This document shows positions 911-20,103 of a DNA stretch of 64,000 nucleotides, in pieces. The notes under the pieces were generated by a model. The model saw only the letters and a list, made by a program, of their open reading frames with translations, searched no databases and was not told where the DNA came from. Both the position numbers and the translations under genes were made by a program. Every line of letters begins with the position of its first letter. The stretch's first letter is position 1. Location: contig JBJOMY010000002.1 of assembly GCA_046052125.1 (NCBI GenBank), forward strand, positions 160,001 through 224,000, written 5' to 3'. Origin of the DNA: Cyanobacteriota bacterium. Lineage in GTDB: Bacteria > Cyanobacteriota > Cyanobacteriia > PCC-6307 > Cyanobiaceae.

Positions 911-1393
911 TCAGTTGCAGCCCTGCACGGAGATCCGATAGGTGAAGCCGGTGGCCGCCTGATCAGCACTGGCGCCGATCTTGAAGTTCACCTGGCTCAC
1001 GGTCTTACCGGGCACAGCTTGCACCACCCAGTCACGTCCGGTGCCAACCCCAGGGGTCAACGAATCGTTGATCACCTGCAGGTTGGAGCCATCGGTGAAT
1101 TTGAGATAACCCTGGATCGGATAAGTGGCGCTCACCGATGAGTTCGCCGTGAAGAACAACTTGTAAGAGTTGAAGGGCTGGGTCACGAAGAAATCCGTGT
1201 TCCAGTTGGGCCGGGTGAAGGGCAGCGGATTCCCGGGGCTGATGGTTTTGGTCACGATGTTGGTGACGCCATTGCCGCCGACCGGAGCCAGGAACTGACA
1301 GGTTTGGGCGGAAGCGGAAGCAGTGGCCATCAGCATGCAGCTGCCGGCGGATGCCAGGGCGAGCTGCATGGGCCGGCGCAGGGACAGACGCAT
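911..1393 (-). CDS. Secreted beta-rich hypothetical protein
   Basis: Signal peptide ending ASA-Q; a Cys near each end of the mature chain (TCQF...QGCN); start placed at ATG 1393. Confidence 0.7.
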   Translation of the reverse strand: MRLSLRRPMQLALASAGSCMLMATASASAQTCQFLAPVGGNGVTNIVTKTISPGNPLPFTRPNWNTDFFVTQPFNSYKLFFTANSSVSATYPIQGYLKFTDGSNLQVINDSLTPGVGTGRDWVVQAVPGKTVSQVNFKIGASADQAATGFTYRISVQGCN

Positions 1394-1464
1394 CGAAAAC
1401 GTTCCTGAATGTCGGACCCGATTGTGCATCAAATCCCACAACATGGGCGCAGTTGCCTCTGCCC

Positions 1465-3042
1465 ATGTCGGCGACCAGCAGCCATCCAACCCAGGCTCCA
1501 GAGGGGTTAAAGCGCAGCCTCGGCTTGCGAAGTCTCACCCTGGCGGTGGTCACCAGCACCATCGGTTCGGGTTGGCTGTTTGCCCCGCTCTATGCCGCCC
1601 GCTTCGCCGGTAGCGCCAGTTTGCTGGCCTGGCTATTGGGAGGGCTGATGACCTTTGCCCTGGCGCTGGTGTTCGCCGAACTCGGCGCCCTGGTGCCCAG
1701 CTCCGGAGCCCTGGCCCAGATCCCGCTGCTCAGCCATGGCCGCTGGGCGGGCTTCATCGGCGGCTGGTGCGCCTGGATCGCCTACCTCACGTTGCCAACG
1801 ATTGAAGTGTTGGCGATGGTGCAATACCTGGCCAGCAGCTTCCCCTGGCTCACTGCCGATGGGGGGCAGGGACAGGTGCTCAGCTCAGCCGGACTGGGCA
1901 TCGCCGCCGCGCTGTTGGTGCTGATGGCCTGGATCAACCTGGCTGGCGTGAGCTGGCTGGCCCGCTGGATTGACGGACTCACCAGCTGGAAGCTGGTGGT
2001 GCCGCTCCTGGTGTCGCTGAGCCTGATGGCCGTGGCGGGCCATTGGAGCAATCTCAGCCTCAGCAGCAACGCCCAAGGCGCAGGCCTCACAGGCGTGGTG
2101 GGTGCCATCAGCGGCGGCGGCATCCTGTTCAGCCTTCTGGGCTTCCGCACCGCCATGGATCTGGCCGGTGAAGCCCGCAACCCGCAACGCAACGTGCCCC
2201 TGGCGATGGGGCTGGGACTCGGGATCTCGCTGGCGATCTATCTGGTGCTGCAGTTGAGCTTCCTGGTGGCGGTGCCGCCCCAGGCCCTGGCGCAGGGCTG
2301 GGGCAGCCTGCAGCTCACCGCCCACGGCGGACCGCTGGTGGCGATCGCCACGGGTCTCGGCATGGGCTGGGTGGTGATGCTCCTGCTCAGCGATGCAGTG
2401 ATCTCTCCCGGCGCCACGGCCATGACCTACATGGGCGTCTCAGCGCGGGTGGCCTGGATGATGGGAAAGCTCGGACTCCTGCCCGCCTCCATGGGCCGAC
2501 TCAACCGCCAGGCCGTGCCGGTGGTGGCGCTGCTCTGGAGCCTGTTGATCGGCGTGGTGATGCTGCTGGGAGGGCCCAGCTGGCAACAGGTGGTGAGCTT
2601 CCTCACCGCCACGCTGGTGATCGCTCTGGCTGTCGGCCCGGTGAGCCTGCTCGCCCTCAGGCGGCAACTGCCCCAGGCCGATCGCGCCTTCCGCCTGCCG
2701 TGGGCTGAACTGGTCTGCCCACTCACGTTCGTGCCCGCCAGCTGGGCCGTGATCTGGTGCGGCCGTAGTGCCCTGGAAGGAGCGATCCTGCTGGTGGTGG
2801 TGCCGTCACTGTTGTTCGGCCTGCTGCAGAGCCGAAGCCAACAACAGCTCCACGCCGGCTCAGGCAGCTGGTGGTTTCTCTATCTCGGCGGTCTGCTGTT
2901 GATTGCAGAACTCAGCCAGGGCGGTGCGAGTCAGCTGGTGCTGGTGGCCCTGTTTGCCCTGGCTGTGTTTCCGATCGCTGTTCGGGCGCGGCTACCAAGG
3001 GCCTCAGCAGAGGCCCAGGTGGCCATGGAACTCACACCGTGA
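1465..3042 (+). CDS. APC family amino acid permease
   Basis: LKRSLG..TIGSGW, AELG..PSSG and AGEARNPQRNVP motifs; 12 or more hydrophobic segments. Confidence 0.9.
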   Translation: MSATSSHPTQAPEGLKRSLGLRSLTLAVVTSTIGSGWLFAPLYAARFAGSASLLAWLLGGLMTFALALVFAELGALVPSSGALAQIPLLSHGRWAGFIGGWCAWIAYLTLPTIEVLAMVQYLASSFPWLTADGGQGQVLSSAGLGIAAALLVLMAWINLAGVSWLARWIDGLTSWKLVVPLLVSLSLMAVAGHWSNLSLSSNAQGAGLTGVVGAISGGGILFSLLGFRTAMDLAGEARNPQRNVPLAMGLGLGISLAIYLVLQLSFLVAVPPQALAQGWGSLQLTAHGGPLVAIATGLGMGWVVMLLLSDAVISPGATAMTYMGVSARVAWMMGKLGLLPASMGRLNRQAVPVVALLWSLLIGVVMLLGGPSWQQVVSFLTATLVIALAVGPVSLLALRRQLPQADRAFRLPWAELVCPLTFVPASWAVIWCGRSALEGAILLVVVPSLLFGLLQSRSQQQLHAGSGSWWFLYLGGLLLIAELSQGGASQLVLVALFALAVFPIAVRARLPRASAEAQVAMELTP

Positions 3043-5663: not shown

Positions 5664-6821
5664 TCAGGCCTCCACCATCCGACCTTTCTGCGGGAACAGG
5701 CCAGCGGGCCTGATCTGCAGAAACACCACGATTAAGGCAAACACGAGCACCTTCGCCATCGACGTGGTGGCGAAGAACGTGATCACCGTATTGAGACCTT
5801 CCGGCATCGCCGGCCACACCAGCAGCAGGGAGCCGGAGCCCACCACATAACTGAGCACGCCAATGCCTAAGGCCGCGAGCACGGTGCCGGCCAACTTGCC
5901 CACACCGCCAAGCACCACCACCATGAAGCAATCCACGATGTAGTTGCCGCCGAGATTCGGACCCACCGATCCCAGAAGCGTCACCGCCACACCAGCCACG
6001 CCGGCCAAACCAGAGCCGATCAGGAACGTGAGCGCATCCACCTTTTCCGTGGGAATGCCGAGACAATCACTCATCGTGCGGTTCTGGGTGACGGCACGAA
6101 TGCGCATCCCCCACACACTCTTCTGCAGAAACCAGTTCACCAACAGCAGCGCCACGATCGTGAGCGCGATGATGAACAAACGGGCCGCCGGCATGTTCAC
6201 CGCACCCACATCAATCGAGCCGCGCAGCCACACCGGAGCAGTGACATCGATGTTGCGGGCACTGAACCAGGGCTGATCAAACACCCTCTGCTCGCCGAGC
6301 AGTGAAGCGATCACCACACCCACTAAACCGGTCACCACCCAGCTGCCGGTGCCGAGCAACGGCGTCCAGCGCTGCTGCCACCAGCGAGCGGGCGTACAGC
6401 GAGGAATCAACAGACCCGCCACCACGGCAACCACCAGCCCGATCGCAAAAGCGCTCGACACCGAGCGCACGAATTGCTGCAGGATCAGGCTCACGCCCCA
6501 GGTGGCCAGCAACGTTTCCAGGGGCCGTCCATACAGCCGCCGAATCACCGTTTTCTCGAGCAGCAAACCAGCCAACCCACTCACCAGAAAGGCGCAGGGC
6601 AAGGCCACCAGGATGTAGATCGGAAACAGCGCCTCAGGCAGCACCGCTTTAAAGATGTTCTGCACCACAAACGTGGTGTAAGCGCCAAGCATCATCAACT
6701 CGCCATGGGCCATGTTGATGACACCCATCAGGCCAAACACCACCGCCAGGCCCAGTGCAGCCAGCACCAGAACCGAGCCGATGGCCAGGCCGTTGAAGAG
6801 TGTGTCGTAGAGAAGATCCAT
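5664..6821 (-). CDS. urtB: Urea ABC transporter permease
   Basis: FGLMGVINMAHGE, YGRPLETLLATWG; start trimmed to MDLLYDTLFNG. Confidence 0.95.
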   Translation of the reverse strand: MDLLYDTLFNGLAIGSVLVLAALGLAVVFGLMGVINMAHGELMMLGAYTTFVVQNIFKAVLPEALFPIYILVALPCAFLVSGLAGLLLEKTVIRRLYGRPLETLLATWGVSLILQQFVRSVSSAFAIGLVVAVVAGLLIPRCTPARWWQQRWTPLLGTGSWVVTGLVGVVIASLLGEQRVFDQPWFSARNIDVTAPVWLRGSIDVGAVNMPAARLFIIALTIVALLLVNWFLQKSVWGMRIRAVTQNRTMSDCLGIPTEKVDALTFLIGSGLAGVAGVAVTLLGSVGPNLGGNYIVDCFMVVVLGGVGKLAGTVLAALGIGVLSYVVGSGSLLLVWPAMPEGLNTVITFFATTSMAKVLVFALIVVFLQIRPAGLFPQKGRMVEA

Positions 6822-6871
6822 CGCGACCAGCAGCGGTCTCAGGCAAAGGGAAAAAACAAAAGCAGGGAAAC

Positions 6872-6896
6872 AAAAAGGGGGAGATTGCTCTCCCCC
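6872..6896 (-). terminator. Intrinsic terminator/stabilising hairpin between urtA and urtB
   Basis: Minus strand GGGGGAGA-GCAA-TCTCCCCC-TTTTT: 8-bp stem, GNRA loop, U-tract. Confidence 0.75.
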
Positions 6897-6926
6897 CAAT
6901 CCCTCAAGAGATGCCAGATGTGTGGA

Positions 6927-8219
6927 TCACATCTTGTACTTGCCTGCGTCGGGACGGTTCTGGGTCCAGTCACAGGTGTAGCCCTTGGTTTCAGGCACGT
7001 ACTGGTTCCAGGCCACAGGCTTCACGAAGCCCTTGTTCTCGAGAATCTTGAACATGCCGTCCTTCTGAACCTCGCCGATCAGCACAAGCTTCTCAACGTG
7101 GTGGTTGGGCATCACGGTCACCTTGCCTTCGGGAGCATCGAAGCTCACGCCGATCAGGGCCTCACGCACCTTGTTGTCGTCGACGCTGTTGGCTTTTTCA
7201 GCAGCAGCAGCCCACAGGTAGACCATCATGTAGGCGGCTTCAGCGGGGTCGTTGGTGACGCGCTTATCGCCGTACTTCGCCTTGAAGTTCTTGGTGAACT
7301 CCTTGGAAGCGGGGGTGTCGAGGCTCTGGAAGAAGTTCCAGGCGGCGTAGGTGCCTTCGAGGTACTCAGGACCGATGGCGGCGATCTCCTCTTCGGCGAT
7401 CGAGAAGCTCATGATCGAGTAGCCGTTGGCCGGGGTGATGCCGGCAGCCTTCATCTGCTTGAAGAAGGCCACGTTGCTATCGCCATTGAGGGTGTTAACA
7501 ATCACACCGCCCTTGGGCAGCGCCTGCTTGATCTTGGCGATGATCGGAGCCACTTCGGTGTTACCGAGGGGCAGGTAGTCCTCACCGACCACCTTGCCGC
7601 CATTGGCCTTCAGCTGCTCCTTCATGATGGTGTTGGCGGTACGTGGATACACGTAATCCGAGCCCACCAGGAAGAAGTCTTTGCCCTTGTTCTTCAGCAG
7701 CCAATCCACAGCGGGCTCAGCCTGCTGGTTGGGAGCAGCACCGCTATAGAAGATGTTCTTGGAGCACTCCTGACCTTCGTACTGAATCGGATAGAAGAGG
7801 AAGTGATCCTTGGCTTCGAACACCGGCAGCATCGCCTTGCGGCTGGCGGAGGTCCAACCACCAAACACGACGGACACCTTGTCCTGATCGATCAGTTTGG
7901 TGGCCTTCTCAGCGAAGGTGGGCCAATCGGAAGCACCGTCTTCCTCGATCGGAACGATCTTGAGCTTCTTGCCGTCGATGGTGATCCCGCCCTTGGCGTT
8001 GATCTCATCGATGGCCATCAGCTCAGCTTCGGCCACCGTGTTTTCGGAGATGGCCATGGTGCCAGAGCGGCTGTGAAGGATGCCCACCTTCACTTCGCCG
8101 TCGAAATCACCACCGGCCTTCTCACCGCCGCCGCAGGCCACCAGCGAGAGGGAGGTGGCGAGGGCCGTGGCACCGCCCAGTAGACGCAGCGAAGTCTTCC
8201 GCATCGAAGGGGACGTCAT
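6927..8219 (-). CDS. urtA: Urea ABC transporter substrate-binding lipoprotein
   Basis: Lipobox LVAC, VGILHSRSGTMAISE, EDGASDWPTFAEKA, GWTSASRK, YEGQE. Confidence 0.95.
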   Translation of the reverse strand: MTSPSMRKTSLRLLGGATALATSLSLVACGGGEKAGGDFDGEVKVGILHSRSGTMAISENTVAEAELMAIDEINAKGGITIDGKKLKIVPIEEDGASDWPTFAEKATKLIDQDKVSVVFGGWTSASRKAMLPVFEAKDHFLFYPIQYEGQECSKNIFYSGAAPNQQAEPAVDWLLKNKGKDFFLVGSDYVYPRTANTIMKEQLKANGGKVVGEDYLPLGNTEVAPIIAKIKQALPKGGVIVNTLNGDSNVAFFKQMKAAGITPANGYSIMSFSIAEEEIAAIGPEYLEGTYAAWNFFQSLDTPASKEFTKNFKAKYGDKRVTNDPAEAAYMMVYLWAAAAEKANSVDDNKVREALIGVSFDAPEGKVTVMPNHHVEKLVLIGEVQKDGMFKILENKGFVKPVAWNQYVPETKGYTCDWTQNRPDAGKYKM

Positions 8220-8264
8220 ACAAGGAAAGTCACAAAAGGGCTGCCGCCGATCAGCGGTGAGCGG

Positions 8265-8307
8265 AACGTATCGGCGCGGCAGACCCCGCTTTGGTAGCCG
8301 ATCGAAC
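8265..8307 (-). promoter_or_regulatory. NtcA-activated promoter of urtA
   Basis: Minus strand GTT-CGATCGGC-TAC (8307-8294), 23-nt spacer, -10 hexamer TACGTT (8270-8265). Confidence 0.7.
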
Positions 8308-8376
8308 AATTTCCTCAACTCGCGAGACTCATTGCCCCGCAGGCAATCTCAAGGGCCGCCACCACGCCGCTTGACT

Positions 8377-8390
8377 GTGTCGGTTGCTAC
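8377..8390 (-). promoter_or_regulatory. Second, distal NtcA-like site upstream of urtA
   Basis: Minus strand GTAGCAACCGACAC (GTA-N8-CAC). Confidence 0.5.
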
Positions 8391-8402
8391 TAACCGCGGC
8401 GA

Positions 8403-9008
8403 TCAGCCCGGCAATTGCTTCAACACAAACGCTTCAACCTCTGCGAGTCCCTCGCCGGAATGGAGGTTGGTGAAACACCAGGGGCGGCCCGAACGCATCC
8501 GCTCGGTGTCGCGCTCCATCACCTCAAGGCTGGCTCCCACCAGGGGCGCCAGATCGATCTTGTTGATCACCAACAGATCGGAGCGGGTGATGCCTGGGCC
8601 GCCCTTGCGGGGAATCTTGTCGCCGGCCGCCACATCAATCACATAGATGCAGAGGTCCACCAGCTCCGGGCTGAAGCTGGCGGCCAGGTTGTCGCCACCG
8701 CTCTCCACCAGCACCAGATCCAGCCCTGGATAGGCGGCCTCCAGCTCAGCCACCGCCGCCCGATTGATCGAGCAGTCTTCGCGGATGGCGGTGTGAGGGC
8801 AACCGCCCGTTTCCACGCCACGGATGCGCCCCGGTTCCAGGGCTCCAGCGCGGGTGAGGAACTGGGCATCTTCCTGCGTGTAGATGTCGTTGGTGACCAC
8901 CGCGAGCTCGAGCCGATCCCGCAGACGGCGGCAGAGCGCCTCCACCAAGGCGGTTTTGCCGGATCCCACGGGACCGGCCACCCCGACGCGTAGACGACTG
9001 GGTGCCAT
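8403..9008 (-). CDS. ureG: Urease accessory GTPase
   Basis: [13 protein letters not shown] Ni motif, ESGGDNL, NKID. Confidence 0.97.
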
Positions 9009-10021
9009 CAACGCACCACCTGATCCGCCCGCTTCAGCAGCTCGTCGGGCACGCTGACGCCGATCGCCTTGGCGGTGGCCAGGCTCACCAGCAGATCCGT
9101 CTTGGTGAGCGGTTCGAACGCCATCTGAGCGGGCGACTCGCCCTTGAGCACGCGCACCGCCAGGCGCCCAGCGGCGGCGCCGTCATCGCGGTAGTTCCAA
9201 CCGATCACCGCCAGGCAACCAGGGAGCTGAATATCGGGCGGATCAACGGAATACACCGGAATACGGTTCTCCAGGCCCACCTTGCAGATGGCAGCGAAGG
9301 CCTGAATGGTGGCGTAATCGCCGATTTTCACGAACGCCTCCACCTCCTTCTCCGCGAGGGCCTTGGCGGCCTGCTGCACCTCACCGGAATTGGCCACCGC
9401 CTGCTCCACCAGGGTGATGCCGCGTTTCTCGGCTTCCTTGCGCAGGATCTTGGCTTCGTAATCGGAGTTGGGCTCACCTGGATTGAAAATCAATCCCACG
9501 GACTTGATCGCCGGATTCACCTGCCGCGCCAGGTCCAGCTCCTGGCCCACGGGGTTGGTGCCCACGGTGCCCACCACATTCGGGCGATGCTGCCCCACGC
9601 CACCGGGCGGGGTGCCAGCGCCGGCACCCCACGGATTGGAGCAGTAGCAGAACACCACCGGAATCGACTCCGGCATCACCTTCATTGCGGCCTGCAGCGG
9701 CGGCGTCCCCACCGCCAGCACCATGTCCACGTTCTCCGCCAGGAACTGCTTCATCACCAGGGTGGTGTTGGGCAGCTCACCGGCCGCGTCCTTGCGCAGG
9801 AAGGTGGCGGTGTCGCCGTCGCGGTAGCCGGCGGCGGCCAACGCCTCCTCAAATCCCTCGCGGGTGAGGTTGGGCGGCGGTGCATCCACCATCTGCAACA
9901 TGCCGATCAGCGGGCCCTTGCGCGGTGCCTTGCCACCAAGGCGGCCGCAGGAGGCCAGCACGAGCGAACTGCCGAGGCCCGCACCAGCGAGAGCCAGAAA
10001 CCGACGGCGGGGCAGGGTCAT
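9008..10021 (-). CDS. ABC transporter substrate-binding lipoprotein (ABC_sub_bind/COG2984-like), Tat signal
   Basis: PRRRFL twin-arginine motif plus lipobox [16 protein letters not shown] and [13 protein letters not shown] segments typical of the family. Confidence 0.85.
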
Positions 10022-10821
10022 GGCAAGGAAGAGTCGTCCACCGGCACTGTGGCGCTGGCGTAGAGCGCACGCAACGAGGCAGCGGTCAACGCTTGCCGCT
10101 GCAGAGCCGACCAGTCGCCAATCACCTCACCCGCCTGCAGCATCACCAGGCGATCGCCGTAGTGCAGGGCCTGCTCCAGGCTGTGGGTGACCATCAAGGT
10201 GGTGGTGCCCAAGCGAGCCACCAACCGGGCGGTGAGTGCCATCACACCGGCTTCAGCGCGGGGATCCAGAGCGGCGGTGTGTTCATCGAGCAGCAGCAGC
10301 CGCGGTTCGCCCAGGCTGGCCATCACCAGGCTGATGGTCTGCCGCTGACCTCCGGAGAGCTCGCCCACCGGCGTATCCAGGCGATCCGCCAGCGGCAGAC
10401 CCAGATCATCGAGCAGGGCGGCATAGCGGCGCTGATCGCCGCGGCCGGGATGGAGACCGAACAGGGCCCCGGGGGAGAGCAGGGAGCGGCGGCGGCACTC
10501 AGCTAGGCGCAGGTTTTCAGCGATGGTGAGCCCTGGCGCCGTGCCATCCAGCGGGTTCTGCATCACCCGTCCGATGGCACGGGCGCGCCGATGCTCCGGC
10601 AGGCGCAGCAGCTCACGCCCCTCCAGCTGCACTGAGCCCGCTCCTGCAGGCAAACGTCCGGCAATCAGATTGAGCAACGTCGACTTACCGGAGCCATTGC
10701 TGCCGATCAGCACCAGGAACTGACCGCTGCTGCAGGACAGGCTGAAGTTGCTGAACAACTGACGCCAGCCGCCACCGGGCAGGGCATGGCCCCAGCTCAG
10801 CCCCGCAATCTCCAGGCTCAC
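10018..10821 (-). CDS. ABC transporter ATP-binding protein (COG1101-like)
   Basis: IGSNGSGKSTL, RVMQNPLDGTAP, LSGGQRQ, LLDEHTAALDP. Confidence 0.9.
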   Translation of the reverse strand: MSLEIAGLSWGHALPGGGWRQLFSNFSLSCSSGQFLVLIGSNGSGKSTLLNLIAGRLPAGAGSVQLEGRELLRLPEHRRARAIGRVMQNPLDGTAPGLTIAENLRLAECRRRSLLSPGALFGLHPGRGDQRRYAALLDDLGLPLADRLDTPVGELSGGQRQTISLVMASLGEPRLLLLDEHTAALDPRAEAGVMALTARLVARLGTTTLMVTHSLEQALHYGDRLVMLQAGEVIGDWSALQRQALTAASLRALYASATVPVDDSSLP

Positions 10822-11678
10822 GCCTCACCCCCGGGAGCCGACAGCCCAGGGATGCGCAACCGGCCCAAGCCCAAAGCCGCCAATAGCAGCAATGCCGTGG
10901 CCAGCTTGAGATCCACCGGATCCAAACCCAGCTGGAGGGCCAGGGCGATCATGGCGCGGAACAGCACCGACCCCACCACCACCGCCACCAGCGACCAGCC
11001 GACTGAACGGGGCCGCAGCACCGACTCACCAACAATCACCGCCCCCAGGCCAAGGATCAGGGAGCCGAGGCCCATGGTGACGTCGGCAAAACCCTGATAG
11101 GTGGCGACCAGCGCACCGGCCAAAGCCACCATGGCGTTGCCGGCGGCGATGCCCAGGGTGAGGCCACGGCGGGTGGAGATGGCATTGGAGCGGGCCATCA
11201 CCGGGTTGTTGCCAATGGCCCGCAGCGCCAGGCCGAGATCGGTGCGCAGCAGCAAGGCCAACAGCGCGATCAAACCGATCACCACCAACAGCAGAGCGAT
11301 CAGCCACTGCATGTCGCTGCTCACCGCCAGCTGCACATCGGTGAGCGGGATGTTGGAGCGACCCATCAACCGGAGGGTGATCGAATACAGCCCCGTGGTG
11401 GTGAGGATGCCGGCGAACAGATCATTCACCCCAAGGCGGGTGTGGATCAGTCCGGTCACCATTCCAGCGAGGGCCCCCAAACCGACTGCCACCAGCAGAG
11501 CCACCGGCACCGCCACCTGCTCACTGAGCAGCAGGGCGGCGCTGCCACCACCGAGGGCGAAGGAGCCATCCACCGTGATGTCGGCGAAGTTGAGCACCCG
11601 CAGGGTGAGGTACACGCCGAGAGCGAGGCCGGCATAGGCCAGGCCCTGGTCGATGGCGCCGATCCAGAGGGTGAGCAT
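10818..11678 (-). CDS. ABC transporter permease (COG4120-like)
   Basis: LRVLNFADITVDGSF, LYSITLRLMGRSNIPL, YQGFADVTMG. Confidence 0.9.
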   Translation of the reverse strand: MLTLWIGAIDQGLAYAGLALGVYLTLRVLNFADITVDGSFALGGGSAALLLSEQVAVPVALLVAVGLGALAGMVTGLIHTRLGVNDLFAGILTTTGLYSITLRLMGRSNIPLTDVQLAVSSDMQWLIALLLVVIGLIALLALLLRTDLGLALRAIGNNPVMARSNAISTRRGLTLGIAAGNAMVALAGALVATYQGFADVTMGLGSLILGLGAVIVGESVLRPRSVGWSLVAVVVGSVLFRAMIALALQLGLDPVDLKLATALLLLAALGLGRLRIPGLSAPGGEA

Positions 11679-11713
11679 GGCTGCATTGTGCCGAGATCAG
11701 TCGGCGCTGCCCT

Positions 11714-12397
11714 TCAACTGCGGAACAAGCGTGAATAGAGCTCCGCATGTTGGAGTTGCGCCAAGCCCGCACCCACGCCGCCGTTGTGCAGCTGCCGAGG
11801 GTCTCGCTGGGCCAGATCCTGCGCCCGTTCAGCAATCAGAGCGGCCAGAGCGAGCTGCAGGCGCTGCCCCTGGGTGGGCCCGAGCGGCACCAGACGCACC
11901 GCAGCACTGATCTGATTGGCAACCCAGCTGTAGAGGTAGGCCTCCTCCATGGCGGGTGAGCCGATCTCCAGGCACAGGCTCGCCCAGGCAAAGGCTGCTG
12001 GCCAGGCCAGCAATGGCGCACCCGGGCAGAGGGGCCAACCCAGATCCGCCAGCAGCTGCAACAGCGACTGCCCCATCTGACGCTGCTGAGCCCGCACCTC
12101 CGCCGCCTCCCGCTGGGCGAGCAGCCAGCCATCGAGCTCCGCCGCCGCGCTCAGATCAGCGCCACCCCCCTGATGCAGACGCAACACGCTCTGCAACGCC
12201 GAGAGCCCCGCCGCTTCAAGGGCCACGGCACCGCGACGGAGCTCATCGCTCAGCCAGTACTCGAGGGCTTCAGCGCCGGCGATCGCCCCGCGCTGCACCA
12301 GCACTTCCAGGCCTTCCGAGTAGCTGAACGCCCCCACCGGCAAGGCCGGACTCACCAGCTGAAACAGCCTCAGGCGGGCGGCGTCAGCGCTGCTCAC
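11714..12397 (-). CDS. ureF: Urease accessory protein
   Basis: SPALPVGAFSYSEGLE; C-terminal YSRLFRS. Confidence 0.95.
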   Translation of the reverse strand: MSSADAARLRLFQLVSPALPVGAFSYSEGLEVLVQRGAIAGAEALEYWLSDELRRGAVALEAAGLSALQSVLRLHQGGGADLSAAAELDGWLLAQREAAEVRAQQRQMGQSLLQLLADLGWPLCPGAPLLAWPAAFAWASLCLEIGSPAMEEAYLYSWVANQISAAVRLVPLGPTQGQRLQLALAALIAERAQDLAQRDPRQLHNGGVGAGLAQLQHAELYSRLFRS

Positions 12398-12885
12398 GGG
12401 TGGTGGTGGCTATGGGCGTGGTGGTGGCCGAGCCCCTCGTAGGCACCGGCCTCCGGCTGGAAGGGCAACTGCAACAGGTCCACCGTCAGGCCCCGTTGCC
12501 GCAGCAGTTCGGCGAGCACGGGATCCTGCAGCACCACCAGGCGATCGGCATGGAGCTCCATCGCCACGTGGCGATTGCCGAGGTGATACGCGGCCTGCAG
12601 CAGAGCGAGGGGGTCAGCACTGCGCACCTGCATCACCGGCTCGGGTGCGGCTTGCACCTGCACCTGCACCGCGCCGTCGTCGCTGAGTAGACGTTCACCT
12701 GGCCGCAGGGCGGCGCCGCGGGGCAATTGCAGCAGCAGGTCACGGCCACAGGCGGAGCGCCGATGACCGCGCAGGCTGGTGCGTTCATCAGCCGCCAAAA
12801 GCAGTTGCAGCGGCTCGAGATCCACGGGCGGGGGCACTTGATCCGCCAGACGCTCCACCAACAGGATCGGGGCTTGCTCCGGCAT
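12394..12885 (-). CDS. ureE: Urease nickel metallochaperone
   Basis: AYHLGNRH, FQPEAGAY, His-rich tail HHHAHSHHHP; start uncertain (12885 or 12903). Confidence 0.93.
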   Translation of the reverse strand: MPEQAPILLVERLADQVPPPVDLEPLQLLLAADERTSLRGHRRSACGRDLLLQLPRGAALRPGERLLSDDGAVQVQVQAAPEPVMQVRSADPLALLQAAYHLGNRHVAMELHADRLVVLQDPVLAELLRQRGLTVDLLQLPFQPEAGAYEGLGHHHAHSHHHP

Positions 12886-12934
12886 CTCCAGCTCTGGCTC
12901 CACGGCACACTGATCGGCGAGGGGGCACCTCCCT

Positions 12935-12948
12935 GTGATCATCGCTAC
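12935..12948 (-). promoter_or_regulatory. NtcA-like site at the ureE/ureD divergence
   Basis: Minus strand GTAGCGATGATCAC, followed 22 nt later by CAGTGT (-10-like) toward ureE. Confidence 0.55.
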
Positions 12949-13855
12949 CGCTTCAACGGCCGCAGCCGCCTCGGGCTGGAGCGCCTCCGCCAACCTGCGC
13001 TTCAGCCAGCGCAACGGCATCACCCATCACCAGGGGGGAGCCAGTGCCCCGCTGAAGCTGATGCGCAGCTTTAGCCAGAGCAGCGGCCACTGCGAGCTAC
13101 CGCTGCTGCACACCGCCGGCGGCCTGGTGGGGGGCGACCGGCTGCAACTCGACGCTGAGCTGCAAACCGGCAGCCGCGCCCTGATCACCAGCGTGGCCGC
13201 CCAGAAGGTGTATGGCAGCGTGCGCCGCTCCCGTCTCCACCCCGAAGGCTCCTGGGCGAGCCAACAGCTGCACTTCCGCCAGGCTGAAGGCAGCGATCTG
13301 GAGTGGCTGCCCCAGGAGCTGGTGCTCTATGCCGATGCGCTCTACCAGCAGGATCTGCGGGTGGAGTTGGCTCAAGGCGCCAGCTTCCTGGCCATGGAGG
13401 TGGTGCGGCTGGGGCGCACCGCAGCAGGAGAAAAGCTGGGAGAAGGCCGCTGGCGCTCCTGCGTGGAGATCCAGCGCCTGGCCACCCCAACCGCTGCCCC
13501 GTGCTGGGAGCTGGTGGATCGGCTCGAGCTGGGGGGCGATGGCCTGGCAGCGGAGCACGGCATGGCGGGCCTGCCGGTGTTCGGCTCGCTGGTGTGGGCC
13601 GCACCACAGCCATTACCGGCTGAGCAGCTGCAACACCTGCTCGAGCAGGCGCGCTCAGCCCGCAACGGCCTGGAAGGGTCCATGGCCTGCGGCCCGCTGG
13701 AGCAGGGCCTCGTGGCCCGCTATCGCGGCCCCTCCAGCCAGGCGGCCCGCTTCTGGTTCTGCCGGCTGTGGGCGCTGATCAGAGAGCAACGGGGGCAAGC
13801 CGCGCCGCAACTGCCGCGGGTGTGGCCGTTCCAGGAGAACCCCTTTGCAGCTTGA
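12935..13855 (+). CDS. ureD: Urease accessory protein
   Basis: LLHTAGGLVGGD, TSVAAQKVYGS, LEWLPQE, PRVWP. Confidence 0.93.
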   Translation: MIIATASTAAAASGWSASANLRFSQRNGITHHQGGASAPLKLMRSFSQSSGHCELPLLHTAGGLVGGDRLQLDAELQTGSRALITSVAAQKVYGSVRRSRLHPEGSWASQQLHFRQAEGSDLEWLPQELVLYADALYQQDLRVELAQGASFLAMEVVRLGRTAAGEKLGEGRWRSCVEIQRLATPTAAPCWELVDRLELGGDGLAAEHGMAGLPVFGSLVWAAPQPLPAEQLQHLLEQARSARNGLEGSMACGPLEQGLVARYRGPSSQAARFWFCRLWALIREQRGQAAPQLPRVWPFQENPFAA

Positions 13856-13951
13856 GCGCCGCTCAAGTGTTCAGGCTGAACACAATCGTGCACGGGCGCC
13901 GATCACAGTGATTGCGTTGACTGGGAGTCCCGGTCTGGCCCACCCCCTGCC

Positions 13952-14254
13952 ATGCATCTGACCCCTCAGGAGAAGGACAAGCTCCTGATCGTGACCGCGG
14001 CGCTGCTGGCGGAACGACGCCTCAACCGCGGCCTCAAGCTCAACCACCCGGAAGCGGTGGCCTGGCTGAGCTTCCAGGTGCTCGAAGGCGCCCGCGATGG
14101 GAAGAGCGTGGCCGAGCTGATGCAGGAGGGCACCACCTGGCTGAGCCGGGATCAGGTGATGGAGGGCATTCCCGAACTCGTGCATGAAGTGCAGATCGAG
14201 GCGGTGTTCCCCGACGGCACCAAGCTCGTGACCCTGCACGACCCGATTCGCTGA
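13952..14254 (+). CDS. ureA: Urease gamma subunit
   Basis: [11 protein letters not shown]...[14 protein letters not shown]. Confidence 0.98.
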
Positions 14255-14273
14255 CCACCCCCGCCGCAATCCC

Positions 14274-14606
14274 ATGGCATCACTGACTTCCAGGGGCCTC
14301 ATCCCCGGCGAACTGCTCCCTGAACCCGGCGAGCTCGAACTCAACGCCGGCCGGCCCGTCACCACCGTGCTGGTGGCCAACACGGGCGATCGCCCCGTGC
14401 AGGTGGGATCGCACTTCCACTTTTTTGAAGTGAACGCAGCGCTGGAGTTCGACCGAGAGGCCACCCGCGGCCAACGGCTCGACATCCCTGCCGGGACGGC
14501 GGTGCGCTTTGAGCCCGGCGATAGCCGCGAAGTGCAGCTGGTGCCCTTTGCCGGCGAACGGCGCATCTACGGCTTCAACGGCCTGGTGAACGGCCCCCTC
14601 GACTGA
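14274..14606 (+). CDS. ureB: Urease beta subunit
   Basis: [30 protein letters not shown]. Confidence 0.98.
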
Positions 14607-14612
14607 TCTCCC

Positions 14613-16309
<1,697 letters not shown>

Positions 16310-16708: not shown

Positions 16709-16757
16709 GGGCTGAACGCTAGGCAGCGTGCAGGCGTCGGGGCAACCCTGCGCTTCC

Positions 16758-16799
16758 GTAGCAACAGCAACCTGGGGGGGCCAGGGAGCTCTGCATGAT
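16758..16799 (+). promoter_or_regulatory. NtcA-type promoter of the ATP-grasp operon
   Basis: GTAGCAACAGCAAC (GTA-N8-AAC), 22-nt spacer, CATGAT, then ATG at 16821. Confidence 0.65.
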
Positions 16800-16820
16800 C
16801 ACGCCACCGCAGGCTCGGCG

Positions 16821-18260
16821 ATGTTCACCGACTACCGGCCCAGCAAGGGCTACGACGAATATTTCAGTGCCAGCGAGGAGCCCCGCCGCGCTCTGCAGCC
16901 CCTGCTCTCCTCCCTGGGCGCGCTCGGGCTGGAGCAGCTGAACCGCAACCACGCCGCGGCCGGCATGTTGCTCAAGCGCCTGGGAGCCACCTTCCGGCTC
17001 AACGACTCCGGCAGCCGCGGCGGCGAGCGCATCCTGCCCTTTGATCCCCTGCCCCGTCTGATCGGCGCCAGCGATTGGGAGCAGCTGCAGCGCGGCCTAA
17101 TCCAGCGCCTGGAGGCGATTGATCTGTTCCTGGCGGATGTGTATGGCGATCAGGCGATCCTTCGCGATGGCGTGATCCCCAGGGAAGACGTGGAGAGCTC
17201 CCAGGGCTGGCGCCCCCAGCTCCGCGGCTTCCGGCCGCCTCTGGGCAAGTGGTGCCAGATCTCCGGCCTGGATCTGATCCGCGATGGCCTGGGCACCTGG
17301 CGGGTGCTGGAGGACAACCTGCGCTGCCCTTCGGGAGTGGCCTACTTCCTCGAGAACCGGCGCGTGATGAAGCGCATGTTCCCGAGCCTGTTCAGCGGCC
17401 GCACCGTGCAGCCGATCGACAGCTATCCCTCTCAGCTGCTGCAGACCCTGCGGGATCTAGCCCCTTGGACCGAAGCCCCGCGGGTGGTTCTGCTCACGCC
17501 GGGGGTGTTCAACAGCGCCTACTTCGAGCACAGCTACCTGGCCCAGCAGATGGGCATCTCCCTGGTGGAGGGCCGGGATCTGGCCTGTCAGGACGGACGG
17601 GTGTGGATGCGCACCACCCAGGGGCTGGAGCCGGTGGATGTGATCTACCGCCGCATCGACGACGACTTCCTCGATCCGGCCGTGTTCCGCAGCGATTCAA
17701 TGCTGGGGGTGCGCGGCCTGATGGAGGTGTACGCCCAGGGCCGCGTGGCGATCGCCAACGCACCGGGCACCGGCGTGGCCGACGACAAGCTCATCTACGC
17801 CTACGTACCCGAGATGGTGCGGTATTACCTGGGCGAGGAACCGATCATCGAGAACGTTCCCACCTATCTCTGCTCCAGGCCCGATGACCAGGCCTACGTG
17901 CTGGCGCACCTAAACGAGCTGGTGGTGAAGGCGGTGTCGGAAGCGGGCGGCTACGGGATGCTGATCGGCCCCCATGCCAGCCAGGCCGAGATCCTCGAGT
18001 TCGCCGAGAAGATCAAGGCCGATCCGCGCAATTTCATCGCCCAGCCCACGCTGGAGCTCTCCACCGTGCCCTCCCTGAGTGAAGGAGAGCTGTATCCCTG
18101 CCACGTGGATCTGCGGCCCTATGTGCTGCGGGGCAAAGACTCCTGGGTGACCCCCGGCGGCCTCACCCGGGTGGCGCTCAAACGGGGTTCGCTGGTGGTG
18201 AATTCATCCCAGGGCGGCGGCTGCAAAGACACCTGGATCGTGGAGGAAGCCGCATGCTGA
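16821..18260 (+). CDS. Circularly permuted type 2 ATP-grasp protein
   Basis: YDEYF, VLEDNLRCPSGVAY, YFEHSYLA, IYRRIDDDFLDP, HVDLRP, NSSQGGGCKDTW. Confidence 0.93.
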   Translation: MFTDYRPSKGYDEYFSASEEPRRALQPLLSSLGALGLEQLNRNHAAAGMLLKRLGATFRLNDSGSRGGERILPFDPLPRLIGASDWEQLQRGLIQRLEAIDLFLADVYGDQAILRDGVIPREDVESSQGWRPQLRGFRPPLGKWCQISGLDLIRDGLGTWRVLEDNLRCPSGVAYFLENRRVMKRMFPSLFSGRTVQPIDSYPSQLLQTLRDLAPWTEAPRVVLLTPGVFNSAYFEHSYLAQQMGISLVEGRDLACQDGRVWMRTTQGLEPVDVIYRRIDDDFLDPAVFRSDSMLGVRGLMEVYAQGRVAIANAPGTGVADDKLIYAYVPEMVRYYLGEEPIIENVPTYLCSRPDDQAYVLAHLNELVVKAVSEAGGYGMLIGPHASQAEILEFAEKIKADPRNFIAQPTLELSTVPSLSEGELYPCHVDLRPYVLRGKDSWVTPGGLTRVALKRGSLVVNSSQGGGCKDTWIVEEAAC

Positions 18261-19249
18261 GCCGCGTTGCCGATTCGCTCTACTGGATCAATCGCTACGT
18301 AGAGCGCGCCGAGAACCTCTCTCGCTTCGTGGAGGTGAGCGAGGCCATGGCGCTCGACTGCCCGCCTGGCAGCGCTGAACCCTGGCAGCCGCTAATCGAT
18401 GCCAGCGGCGATCGCGAACTGTTTGATCAGCTCTATCCCAACGGTGGACCCGAGCAGGTGGTGGAGTTTCTGGTGAAGGCCGAGGCCAACCCCAGCAGCA
18501 TCGTGAACTGCATCGCCCTGGCCCGCGAGAACGCCCGCCAGATCCGCGATGTGATCACCACCGAGATGTGGGAGCAGATCAACGGCCTCTACTGGACCCT
18601 GCTGGAGAGCGAGAGCTTCTGGCACCAGCCGCCCCAGGAACAGCTGCGCGAGATCCGGCGCGGTTGCCAACTCTTCTATGGCATCACCGATGCCACCCTC
18701 AGCCGCGATCTCTCCTGGCAGTTCAGCCGTTTGGGCCGCTTGATCGAGCGCGCCGATAAGACGACGCGCATCCTCGATGTGAAGTACTTCCTGCTGCTGC
18801 CCAGCCCGGAGGAAGTGGGTGGCGTTCTGGATGAACTGCAGTGGATCTCCCTCCTGCGCACCGCCGGCGCCTATCAGATGTTCCGCCAGTCGCAGCAAGG
18901 TGTGATCGCGCCAAGGGCGGTGGCGGCCTTCCTCTTGCTCGATCCGAGCTTCCCCCGCTCGGTGCGCTACTGCCTCGATCGCATCCACGAAACCTTGCAG
19001 GTGGTGGCGGCCAGCCCTGTGCCCGGCAACCCCGACGCGCTCGAATGCCTCAGCGGCCTCACCCGCGCCCGCTGGAGCTACACCGGCATCGATGAGTTGA
19101 TCGCCGGTGGCCTGCACGAGGCGATCGACGCGCTTCAACAAGATCTGAATAGCCTTCACGAGCTGATCCACTCGCGCTACTTCGTGTTGCCGAGCCTGGC
19201 CCCAGCAGCAACCGCCACCAGTGACGACCTGGCATGCGCGCCCGCCTGA
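18254..19249 (+). CDS. Alpha-E domain protein
   Basis: MLSRVADSLYWINRYVERAEN and GRLIERADKTTRILDVK (two ER motifs), FPRSV. Confidence 0.93.
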   Translation: MLSRVADSLYWINRYVERAENLSRFVEVSEAMALDCPPGSAEPWQPLIDASGDRELFDQLYPNGGPEQVVEFLVKAEANPSSIVNCIALARENARQIRDVITTEMWEQINGLYWTLLESESFWHQPPQEQLREIRRGCQLFYGITDATLSRDLSWQFSRLGRLIERADKTTRILDVKYFLLLPSPEEVGGVLDELQWISLLRTAGAYQMFRQSQQGVIAPRAVAAFLLLDPSFPRSVRYCLDRIHETLQVVAASPVPGNPDALECLSGLTRARWSYTGIDELIAGGLHEAIDALQQDLNSLHELIHSRYFVLPSLAPAATATSDDLACAPA

Positions 19250-20103
19250 TCCACCGGTTCGATTACCGCTACACCAAGCCCGTGGTGCTGGGTCCCCATC
19301 GCTTCTGCCTGCGGCCACGGCCCCATGGCTTTCAGCGCTTGATCGACTTCCGCCTGGAGATCTCTCCCGATCCCAGCCAGCTCTATGACCTATTGGCCGC
19401 CGGCGGCGACACGATCACCCGGGCCCGCTTCCTCGGGGAGAGCGATCACCTGCTGGTGGTGGCCACCAGCGAACTGGAAACCTTCAACCCTCCGCTGCTG
19501 GAGGCCTGCCTCGATGAGCCGATGGCGCAGCTGCCCGTGCAGATCGGCAAGCTCAACCCCGATCTCTTGAGCAACCTGCAGGGCTGGCTGCCCAACGGCC
19601 AGCACGATGCGGCGGCCGTGGATCTGGCCCAGGAAGCGCTGATGGGCAGCGATGGGCGCAGCCTCAACTTCCTGCAGCAGCTGATCGAGGTGATCCAGGA
19701 CCGGGTGAAGTACACCCAACGCCACGTGGGTCCGGCGTGGCCCGCTGGCCGCACCCTCAAGGAACGGGTGGGCTCCTGCCGCGATCTGGCGATGCTGATG
19801 ATCGAGTGCTGCCGCAGCGTGGGGCTGCCCGCCCGCTTTGTGAGCGGTTACCACCTGGTGGAACCCAAACCCGAGCGCTACGACCTGCACGCCTGGGCCG
19901 AGGTGTATCTGCAGGGAGCGGGCTGGCGCGGCTTTGACCCCAGCGGCAAGGGCGCCGTGGACGACCGCTACATCCCGGTGGCCACCTCGTCCCGCTCCGA
20001 TCTCACCGCGGCGGTGAGCGGCACCTTCTCCGGCCCACCCGGGGTGGAGAGCGAGCTGGAGTGGGAGATCACTGCCGAAATCTTGAGTTCTGCGCTGCGG
20101 TAG
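19234..20103 (+). CDS. Bacterial transglutaminase-like protein
   Basis: Catalytic triad segments GSCRD, HAWAEVY and GFDP; PARFVSGY. Confidence 0.92.
   Translation: MRARLIHRFDYRYTKPVVLGPHRFCLRPRPHGFQRLIDFRLEISPDPSQLYDLLAAGGDTITRARFLGESDHLLVVATSELETFNPPLLEACLDEPMAQLPVQIGKLNPDLLSNLQGWLPNGQHDAAAVDLAQEALMGSDGRSLNFLQQLIEVIQDRVKYTQRHVGPAWPAGRTLKERVGSCRDLAMLMIECCRSVGLPARFVSGYHLVEPKPERYDLHAWAEVYLQGAGWRGFDPSGKGAVDDRYIPVATSSRSDLTAAVSGTFSGPPGVESELEWEITAEILSSALR

Follow-up and report, generated by a model that had tools for sequence, protein, structure and literature searches.

Gene organization at the urease locus

The DNA analyzed here is a 64,000-nt window, meaning the whole stretch that was studied, from a GC-rich lake picocyanobacterium of the family Cyanobiaceae (assembly GCA_046052125.1, contig JBJOMY010000002.1, positions 160,001 to 224,000). 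The subject of this work is the minus-strand block from ureE to ureG. Within it, between the urease maturation genes ureF and ureG, lies a three-gene cassette encoding the permease, the ATPase and the substrate-binding protein (SBP) of an importer belonging to the ATP-binding cassette (ABC) type. The features of the block are the following.

12935..12948, minus strand: NtcA-like box (GTA-N8-CAC, putative function), located between the divergent ureE and ureD genes and 50 nt ahead of the ureE ATG
12394..12885, minus strand: ureE (PF02814/PF05194; NF009751 above cut-off)
11714..12397, minus strand: ureF (PF01730)
11685..11690, minus strand: CACAAT hexamer 6 nt ahead of the permease ATG, predicted from positional recurrence to be the -10 element of a leaderless internal promoter
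10818..11678, minus strand: ABC permease gene (TrpY-like), 286 aa (PF02653, E 6e-22)
10018..10821, minus strand: ABC ATPase gene (TrpZ-like), 267 aa, GTG start (PF00005)
9008..10021, minus strand: SBP gene (TrpX-like), 337 aa (PF04392, E 5e-52; structure model with a mean confidence, pLDDT, of 91.5; Foldseek matches 3LKV, 3LFT and 6HNI)
8403..9008, minus strand: ureG (TIGR00101, 323.5 bits against a cut-off of 204.2), start overlapping the SBP stop codon (TGATG)
8377..8390, minus strand: NtcA-like box (GTA-N8-CAC, putative function) between ureG and urtA

The coordinates and the junction letters agree with the gene order and overlaps described in an earlier reading made from the sequence alone. 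The permease and ATPase genes overlap by 4 nt (GTGA), as do the ATPase and SBP genes (ATGA), and the SBP stop and the ureG start share 1 nt (TGATG). The spacing between ureF and the permease gene is 35 nt. The genes urtABCDE are located downstream of ureG (urtA at 6927-8219), and ureDABC are divergent from ureE. The genome contains a single copy each of the permease, ATPase and SBP genes. The closest titled match to the SBP is a Vulcanococcus record (92%). The GC content of the cassette (0.666-0.675) and that at third codon positions (GC3, 0.79-0.84) equal the values of the ure genes, which indicates that the cassette is not recently acquired foreign DNA.

The combination of a PF04392 SBP, a PF02653 permease and a PF00005 ATPase is that of a TrpXYZ-type system and bears out the family assignment of the sequence-only reading, from which the COG numbers COG4120, COG1101 and COG2984 come. 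The system is a real and conserved picocyanobacterial variant of the known TrpXYZ importer family.

Distribution of the cassette

The family survey comprised 401 genomes from 64 genera, and SBP matches in it include fragments. An SBP match was found in 97 of the 401 genomes and in 7 of the 64 genera, and a UreG match in 309 of the 401 genomes. Among 286 cyanobacterial genomes from outside the family, just 3 contain an SBP match. Recent horizontal insertion was considered and is rejected on the basis of this restriction, of the age of the clade and of a base composition like that of the neighbouring genes. Two outside SBPs of the same class were aligned and have the ordinary HPxLD, AVTDP and TDN pocket motifs. 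Lone PF04392 genes occur in two other cyanobacteria as well. In a genome of another cyanobacterial family (G622, L202:9580-15100), a lone PF04392 gene with an ordinary pocket follows ureC at a distance of about 2.8 kb, which may be chance.

We retrieved 79 loci with flanks of up to 8 kb. In 72 of them the SBP shares at least 60% identity with the SBP studied here (close SBP). Taking all 79 loci together, 38 are found at ure, 31 lie beside carB and 10 have neither context; linkage to urease genes is thus recurrent. The tabulation of homologue neighbourhoods which the sequence-only reading had suggested gives a divided answer when restricted to close SBPs: the ure linkage recurs (31/72), but an equal number of loci lie at carB (31/72) and a further 10/72 at neither. 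The carB context is carB-DUF3386-cassette-exporter-tpiA-folP. Nine of the ten loci of the last type occupy the usual chromosomal site with the ure genes missing on the visible side, and the tenth (L033) is too short to judge. A paralog SBP with 38-51% identity is present in seven loci, every one at ure. In 38 of 40 ureG regions, taken from genomes chosen for the lack of a close SBP there, no gene is located between ureF and ureG. Unrelated inserts are frequent in the wider ure cluster and include TauE, Mem_trans, Na/H exchanger, DUF1400 hydrolase and MlaD/MlaE genes. A search of plasmids for the cassette returned distant permeases only, below 60% identity. The arrangement is not a chance one and recurs across freshwater picocyanobacteria.

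Several loci show peculiarities. A TauE/SafE gene (PF01925) on the opposite strand separates ureF from the cassette in L064, L066, L068 and L084 (5502-6302), and stands alone between ureF and ureG in L141. The ureE-ureF region is enlarged in L144, L145 and L146, with about 800 nt of extra sequence after ureE and two separate stretches matching ureF. A contig titled as Verrucomicrobia and counted at ure (L102:3958-6108) connects a glutamine-synthetase-like gene with the SBP gene (3' half) and ureG, and is likely a chimeric assembly.

Fold and binding pocket of the substrate-binding protein

The SBP carries a twin-arginine-like motif and a lipobox-like cysteine. The RR motif is present in 94 and the lipobox in 81 of 102 relatives. 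In Foldseek, its model aligned with 3LKV, 3LFT and 6HNI with TM scores (by target) of 0.96, 0.95 and 0.94, respectively, and root-mean-square deviations of 1.5-1.8. According to the accessible sections of PMC6816091, these proteins, namely VC_1101, SP1069 and CD0873, bind Phe, Trp and Tyr, respectively. The available part of a 2023 survey lists the Trp, Tyr and Phe binders as the only liganded PF04392 structures (PMC10443332).

The best matches by both sequence and fold are CD0873 of Clostridioides difficile and VC_1101 of Vibrio cholerae, with 27-29% identity. The SBP studied here differs from them in the clade-specific residues Y126, W131 and Y236 and in its N-terminal twin-arginine-like motif. 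The TrpXYZ system of Streptococcus suis and S. pneumoniae (SP1069) has the same constituents, a PF04392 SBP, a PF02653 permease and a single ATPase. Its SBP shares about 26% identity with ours. In contrast to TrpXYZ, the gene order here is permease-ATPase-SBP within a ure cluster, and no T-box was found in the window. The adjoining urea importer UrtABCDE is likewise an ABC importer with a class I SBP fold type in the nitrogen-scavenging island. It differs in having two permeases, two ATPases and an SBP of the UrtA type (PF13433/TIGR03407), whereas the SBP of the cassette belongs to PF04392.

Pocket residues were mapped by sequence alignment alone and tallied in 101 clade members and 300 domains from outside the clade. 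The conserved ligand residues, in TrpX numbering, are T108, A127, T129, D152 and N233, as given in the accessible text of PMC9382623. The T108 equivalent is kept in our SBP, and T129 is present as Ser. The positions of A127, D152 and N233 differ, and the Trp-selecting Gln is a Tyr. The clade keeps T106 (101/101), D235 (101/101) and S128 (96/101). It has Y236 (101/101), W131 (101/101), Y126 (99/101) and G154 (75/101, never Asp). The position equivalent to N233 is occupied by Asn in 234 of the 300 outside domains and by Tyr in all 101 clade members. At the D152 position Asp occurs in just 41 of the 300 outside domains. Since this position varies across the wider family, the loss of D152 weighs less than the change to Y236. 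D260 and Y277 line up with the two residues by which CD0873 selects Tyr, E263 and Y279; Asp is also the commonest residue at the former position outside the clade (110/300). The TrpX equivalog model NF041285 gives the SBP 144.7 bits, far short of its cut-off of 390. The importer is thus of the TrpXYZ type by its gene set and fold and, as judged by the residue test, is outside the aromatic-amino-acid subgroup.

Retention of the cassette in genomes without urease

The sequence-only reading had favoured a nickel or nickel-chelate importer serving urease maturation as one of two options. This was not borne out, as the intact cassette is found in genomes in which neither urease nor other nickel enzymes were detected. 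Four genomes, all 99% complete (G085, G158, G176 and G209), contain stop-free permease, ATPase and SBP genes and are absent from the UreG matches. A UreC search of five genomes found no match in these four and a match in G269. In G323 and G331 the ure and urt genes are missing between contiguous flanks, and the UreC search was negative. The UreC match of G363 is in two pieces with 71-78% identity. Of 39 genomes searched for NiFe-hydrogenase, 30 gave a match, and of 5 searched for HypA, 3 did; in neither search was G085 or G331 among the positives. Nickel superoxide dismutase (Ni-SOD) was found in 0 of 39 genomes, with a positive control of 4/4 other family genomes, and its absence is also noted in the accessible passages of a 2022 survey (PMC9361551).

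Selection on the cassette was estimated as the ratio of nonsynonymous to synonymous substitution rates (dN/dS) by the pairwise Nei-Gojobori method, with pairs that are not independent and 1-6 pairs per urease-deleted group. In the two urease-deleted clades the SBP has values of 0.05-0.06, the permease of 0.07-0.10 and the ATPase of 0.08-0.10, compared with 0.12-0.18 for ure-linked copies.

The cluster contains no recognizable nickel importer, as had been noted from the sequence, and two HupE/UreJ genes lie elsewhere in the genome. Both are behind cobalamin riboswitches, so that they may be cobalt importers. Such riboswitches are tied to cobalt uptake in the accessible part of a review (PMC4284471). 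Searches for CbiM and NicO gave no match in this genome. A dedicated nickel importer is therefore not evident in this genome. The two HupE/UreJ genes (L150:1290-2031 and L151:1501-2258) adjoin open reading frames for CobW-like GTPases, recognized by eye.

These circumstances, the presence of 38 of 79 loci at ure and the apparent ancestry of that site are what speaks for nickel as the cargo. Nevertheless, we regard nickel import as very unlikely. The cassette is intact in G085 and G331, where urease, hydrogenase, HypA and Ni-SOD were not found, and purifying selection is not relaxed following urease loss. Its distribution is not complementary with that of HupE/UreJ, which is present in 79 of 80 genomes, or of CbiM (2 of 45 genomes with the SBP, 4 of 35 without an intact SBP). 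Complete, urease-positive genomes of the same genus (G009, G098, G125 and G149) contain neither the cassette nor CbiM nor a high-scoring HupE. A search for DsbD_2 (UreH/SodT) was uninformative, as every one of the 80 genomes has a match, mostly a lone copy and probably CcdA. The available part of the 2023 survey does not count the ABC_sub_bind family (PF04392) among the metal-binding SBP families (PMC10443332), and no known nickel-transporter family was matched. The sole invariant histidine (H145) is away from the mapped ligand positions and is also present in 236 of the 300 outside domains. The cassette thus shares its location among urease maturation genes with the nickel importers of urease clusters (HupE/UreJ, UreH/SodT, NiCoT, NikMNQO and NikABCDE), but it differs in having no match to their families and no clade-specific His ligand, in its retention without nickel enzymes and in a predicted promoter of its own. 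A nickel importer would be the first metal-binding PF04392 system, and the evidence is against it.

Regulation and coupling to ureG

In 46 of 58 loci, a hexamer whose second letter is A and whose sixth is T stands precisely 6 nt ahead of the permease ATG. A hexamer at this distance from the ATG has the spacing of a -10 element ahead of a leaderless transcript. By context, the exact position is occupied in 28 of 28 carB loci, 6 of 6 urease-deleted loci and 12 of 24 ure loci, the remainder being shifted upstream. Applied to control genes, the same test gave 2/44 for the ATPase, 3/66 for the SBP, 0/22 for ureG, 0/55 for ureC and 0/24 for tpiA, with higher counts for ureA (17/61), urtA (11/44) and folP (3/7). 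A stricter pattern derived from the observed hexamers matched 46 of 58 loci, compared with 0.5% of the ATG triplets of the genome. A looser test accepting a hexamer anywhere from -32 to -5 was positive for the permease in 58/58 loci but also for the SBP in 55/66; it is uninformative and was not used. A sigma-70 consensus scan of positions 6500-14500 returned 0 promoters, although such a scan requires a -35 box and is blind to -10-only promoters. From this pattern, the cassette appears to have its own leaderless promoter, predicted in the 35-nt gap after ureF.

The loose NtcA pattern has 71 matches in the window, which gives single matches little weight, and for this reason only positional recurrence of the boxes was used. 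Of 68 loci, 30 have an NtcA-like box upstream of ureE, and of 72 loci, 47 have one upstream of urtA; upstream of the permease gene the box is present in 0 of 38 loci located away from ureF. The co-regulation with urease suggested in the sequence-only reading is therefore partly retained: the box upstream of ureE is consistent with it, but the cassette appears to have a promoter of its own.

Among 36 loci with the SBP gene immediately before ureG, some of them from a genome retrieved twice, 31 have the two genes overlapping or at most 3 nt apart. A divergently oriented mlaE gene precedes ureG instead in 24 loci, which indicates that coupling of ureG to the SBP gene is not required. The translational coupling of ureG to the transporter, proposed from the TGATG overlap, thus rests on a real and common arrangement that is nevertheless dispensable. 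Contigs from four freshwater RNA runs span the cassette, and some bridge the permease/ATPase, ATPase/SBP and SBP/ureG junctions; they are thin over ureF, which diverges faster. These contigs carry no strand, start or level, may include DNA carry-over and were not used as evidence.

Evolutionary history and solitary binding proteins

The SBP trees are quick searches without clade tests, in which long branches meet near the root. In them all picocyanobacterial SBPs fall into a single clade (support 100) that is set off by a long stem. Both the basal close copies and the group of paralogs sit at ure, which is why the ure site is probably the ancestral home, with a later move to carB. The carB label needs two changes on the tree, or possibly one origin. 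The ure genes around the cassette were lost in two separate clades.

Four genomes (G168, G202, G218 and G371) have a close SBP between ureF and ureG and no cognate permease found at E<=1e-8, and 16 further genomes have the paralog SBP only, where again none was found. A single clade (support 100) unites the orphan close SBPs, which retain the pocket and have a dN/dS of 0.11. A common deletion junction is present in three of the four orphan-SBP junctions listed. The paralog SBPs have dN/dS values of 0.29-0.37. In some genomes the SBP gene has decayed in place; G010, G126, G150 and G186 contain short SBP fragments only, which adjoin ureG in the three that were retrieved. A translocator shared with another system would be the simplest account of the orphan SBPs.

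In L050, L052 and L069 the permease and ATPase genes are deleted, and the 90-nt gap between ureF and the SBP gene still contains a CACAGT hexamer, as if the cassette promoter had been kept. In another group of loci a divergent mlaE/mlaD pair (PF02405/PF02470) is inserted on the opposite strand between the SBP gene and ureG (L039, L104:4014-5663, L034:4144-5627 and L152-L166). The paralog SBP is always accompanied by mlaE/mlaD, often with no permease or ATPase gene nearby, and might serve an MCE-type system as its periplasmic shuttle.

Proposed function of the importer

We propose that the cassette encodes a self-contained TrpXYZ-type importer that likely takes up a small nitrogen-containing organic compound, namely an amino acid or a close derivative of one, and that is likely not needed for urease activation. 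We give this proposal roughly even chances. Its observed basis is the gene set, the fold and the family, the recurrence, the persistence of the cassette where urease is gone, the purifying selection and the conserved hexamer. The cargo is predicted to differ from the Trp, Tyr and Phe of the solved relatives. Of the two options in the sequence-only reading, import of an organic nitrogen compound therefore stands as the better one, with the nature of the cargo being inferred.

The lipoprotein SBP would be exported, probably by the Tat pathway, and would capture the solute between its two lobes. It would then pass the solute to a permease homodimer powered by an ATPase homodimer. Transcription would start from the predicted leaderless promoter in the 35-nt gap, probably with additional read-through from the NtcA-type ureE promoter under nitrogen starvation, and ureG would be carried on the 3' end of the cassette transcript. 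The ure site, the putative ancestral home of the cassette, lies inside a nitrogen-scavenging island of urt, an APC amino-acid permease and urease. A promoter of its own would explain both the move to carB and the survival of the cassette through deletion of the surrounding ure genes.

The accessible sections of a 2025 survey of 295 picocyanobacteria report growth of freshwater picocyanobacteria on many amino acids, among them basic ones that lack a known transporter, and describe seven amino-acid transporters, the cassette system not being among those named there (PMC11851481). A keyword search of two supplements of that survey returned nothing on the system. Amino-acid ABC transporters are enriched in freshwater according to the 2022 survey, whose accessible passages do not mention the cassette (PMC9361551). 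Our literature search, which did not cover subscription journals, found no description of an ABC importer between ureF and ureG. The significance of the cassette would thus be that of a widespread, conserved importer with a distinct pocket in a group that, in the accessible part of the 2025 survey (PMC11851481), uses amino acids without a known transporter. It also calls for caution with guilt by association: the transporter is tightly coupled to ureG, yet is likely dispensable for urease and independent of it.

Several observations weigh against the proposed nitrogen-compound importer. The alignment places changes at three of the five ligand residues (A127 to Y126, D152 to G154 and N233 to Y236), and the cargo may therefore not be an alpha-amino acid. 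The orphan SBPs are kept at the ure site under selection, which the proposal does not account for, and the ure site appears to be ancestral. The copies at carB have no NtcA-like box before the permease gene (0/29), which means that nitrogen control is not carried along by the cassette. As for the promoter, it is a pattern in the sequence that was defined post hoc in related, non-independent genomes. Finally, one of the two genomes central to the nickel argument, G331, is just 93% complete (G085, 99%).

A classical importer of Tyr, Phe or Trp, as CD0873, VC_1101 or TrpXYZ, would have the same fold and gene set, and the alignment of D260 and Y277 with the Tyr-selecting pair of CD0873 points in this direction, as does the database name of a few homologues, "putative tryptophan/tyrosine transport system". 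We nevertheless consider it unlikely, given the low score with the TrpX model, the replacement of N233 by Tyr in all clade members and the bulky residues Y126, W131 and Y236, which would probably narrow the pocket. Moreover, in the accessible sections of PMC11851481 freshwater strains have no pathways to degrade Phe, Trp and Tyr, the last of which is a poor nitrogen source. The missing equivalent of TrpX D152 could instead mean that the cargo is no nitrogen source at all, such as an organic acid or another small metabolite, and that the location at ure is mere history. The carB copies without an NtcA-like box and the tolerance of the ure cluster for unrelated inserts would fit this possibility. 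It is, however, quite unlikely, as all PF04392 ligands listed in the available part of PMC10443332 are amino acids, and the ure site looks ancestral and lies within a nitrogen-scavenging island.

The orphan SBPs allow another explanation, in which the SBP binds urea, a small amide or a guanidino compound and also serves UrtBCDE or a Liv/Nat-type translocator, hence its solitary occurrence in the ure cluster. The number of genomes without a cognate permease found (4 with the close and 16 with the paralog SBP) and the single, well-supported orphan clade with its retained pocket and low dN/dS agree with this. UrtB and UrtC are presumably permeases of the same branched-chain-type class. However, whole cassettes survive where both ure and urt are gone, mere SBP fragments remain in G010, G126, G150 and G186, and the family of the SBP is another than that of UrtA, which makes this explanation likewise quite unlikely. 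A more specific form of the proposed amino-acid importer would make the clade the missing importer of basic amino acids (arginine, lysine or histidine type), based on an acidic, aromatic-lined pocket (D235, D260, Y126, W131, Y236 and Y277) derived by rebuilding that of a Trp/Tyr-type binding protein, with an SBP also usable as an orphan via a shared translocator. We put this forward as a tentative, rather unlikely option; if true, both homes of the cassette, urease and carB, would touch arginine/urea metabolism. Conversion of arginine to urea as the sole use of the cargo was considered as well and is weakened by the finding of no arginase-family match in G085 and G331.

Neighbouring genes

An arginase/agmatinase-family gene (G000:C2:144748-145515) is located about 23 kb from ureG, and lies 17-33 kb from ureG in G168 and G009. 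An APC-family amino-acid permease gene (window positions 1351-3042) converges on urtE and is kept beside the cassette in the urease-deleted loci L037 and L043. After ureC, an operon encoding circularly permuted ATP-grasp, Alpha-E and transglutaminase proteins (16728-20103) is found, which is still there in urease-deleted relatives. A match to the Rfam family 5_ureB_sRNA at 14769-15054 is antisense to the start of ureC, as is expected for urease genes.

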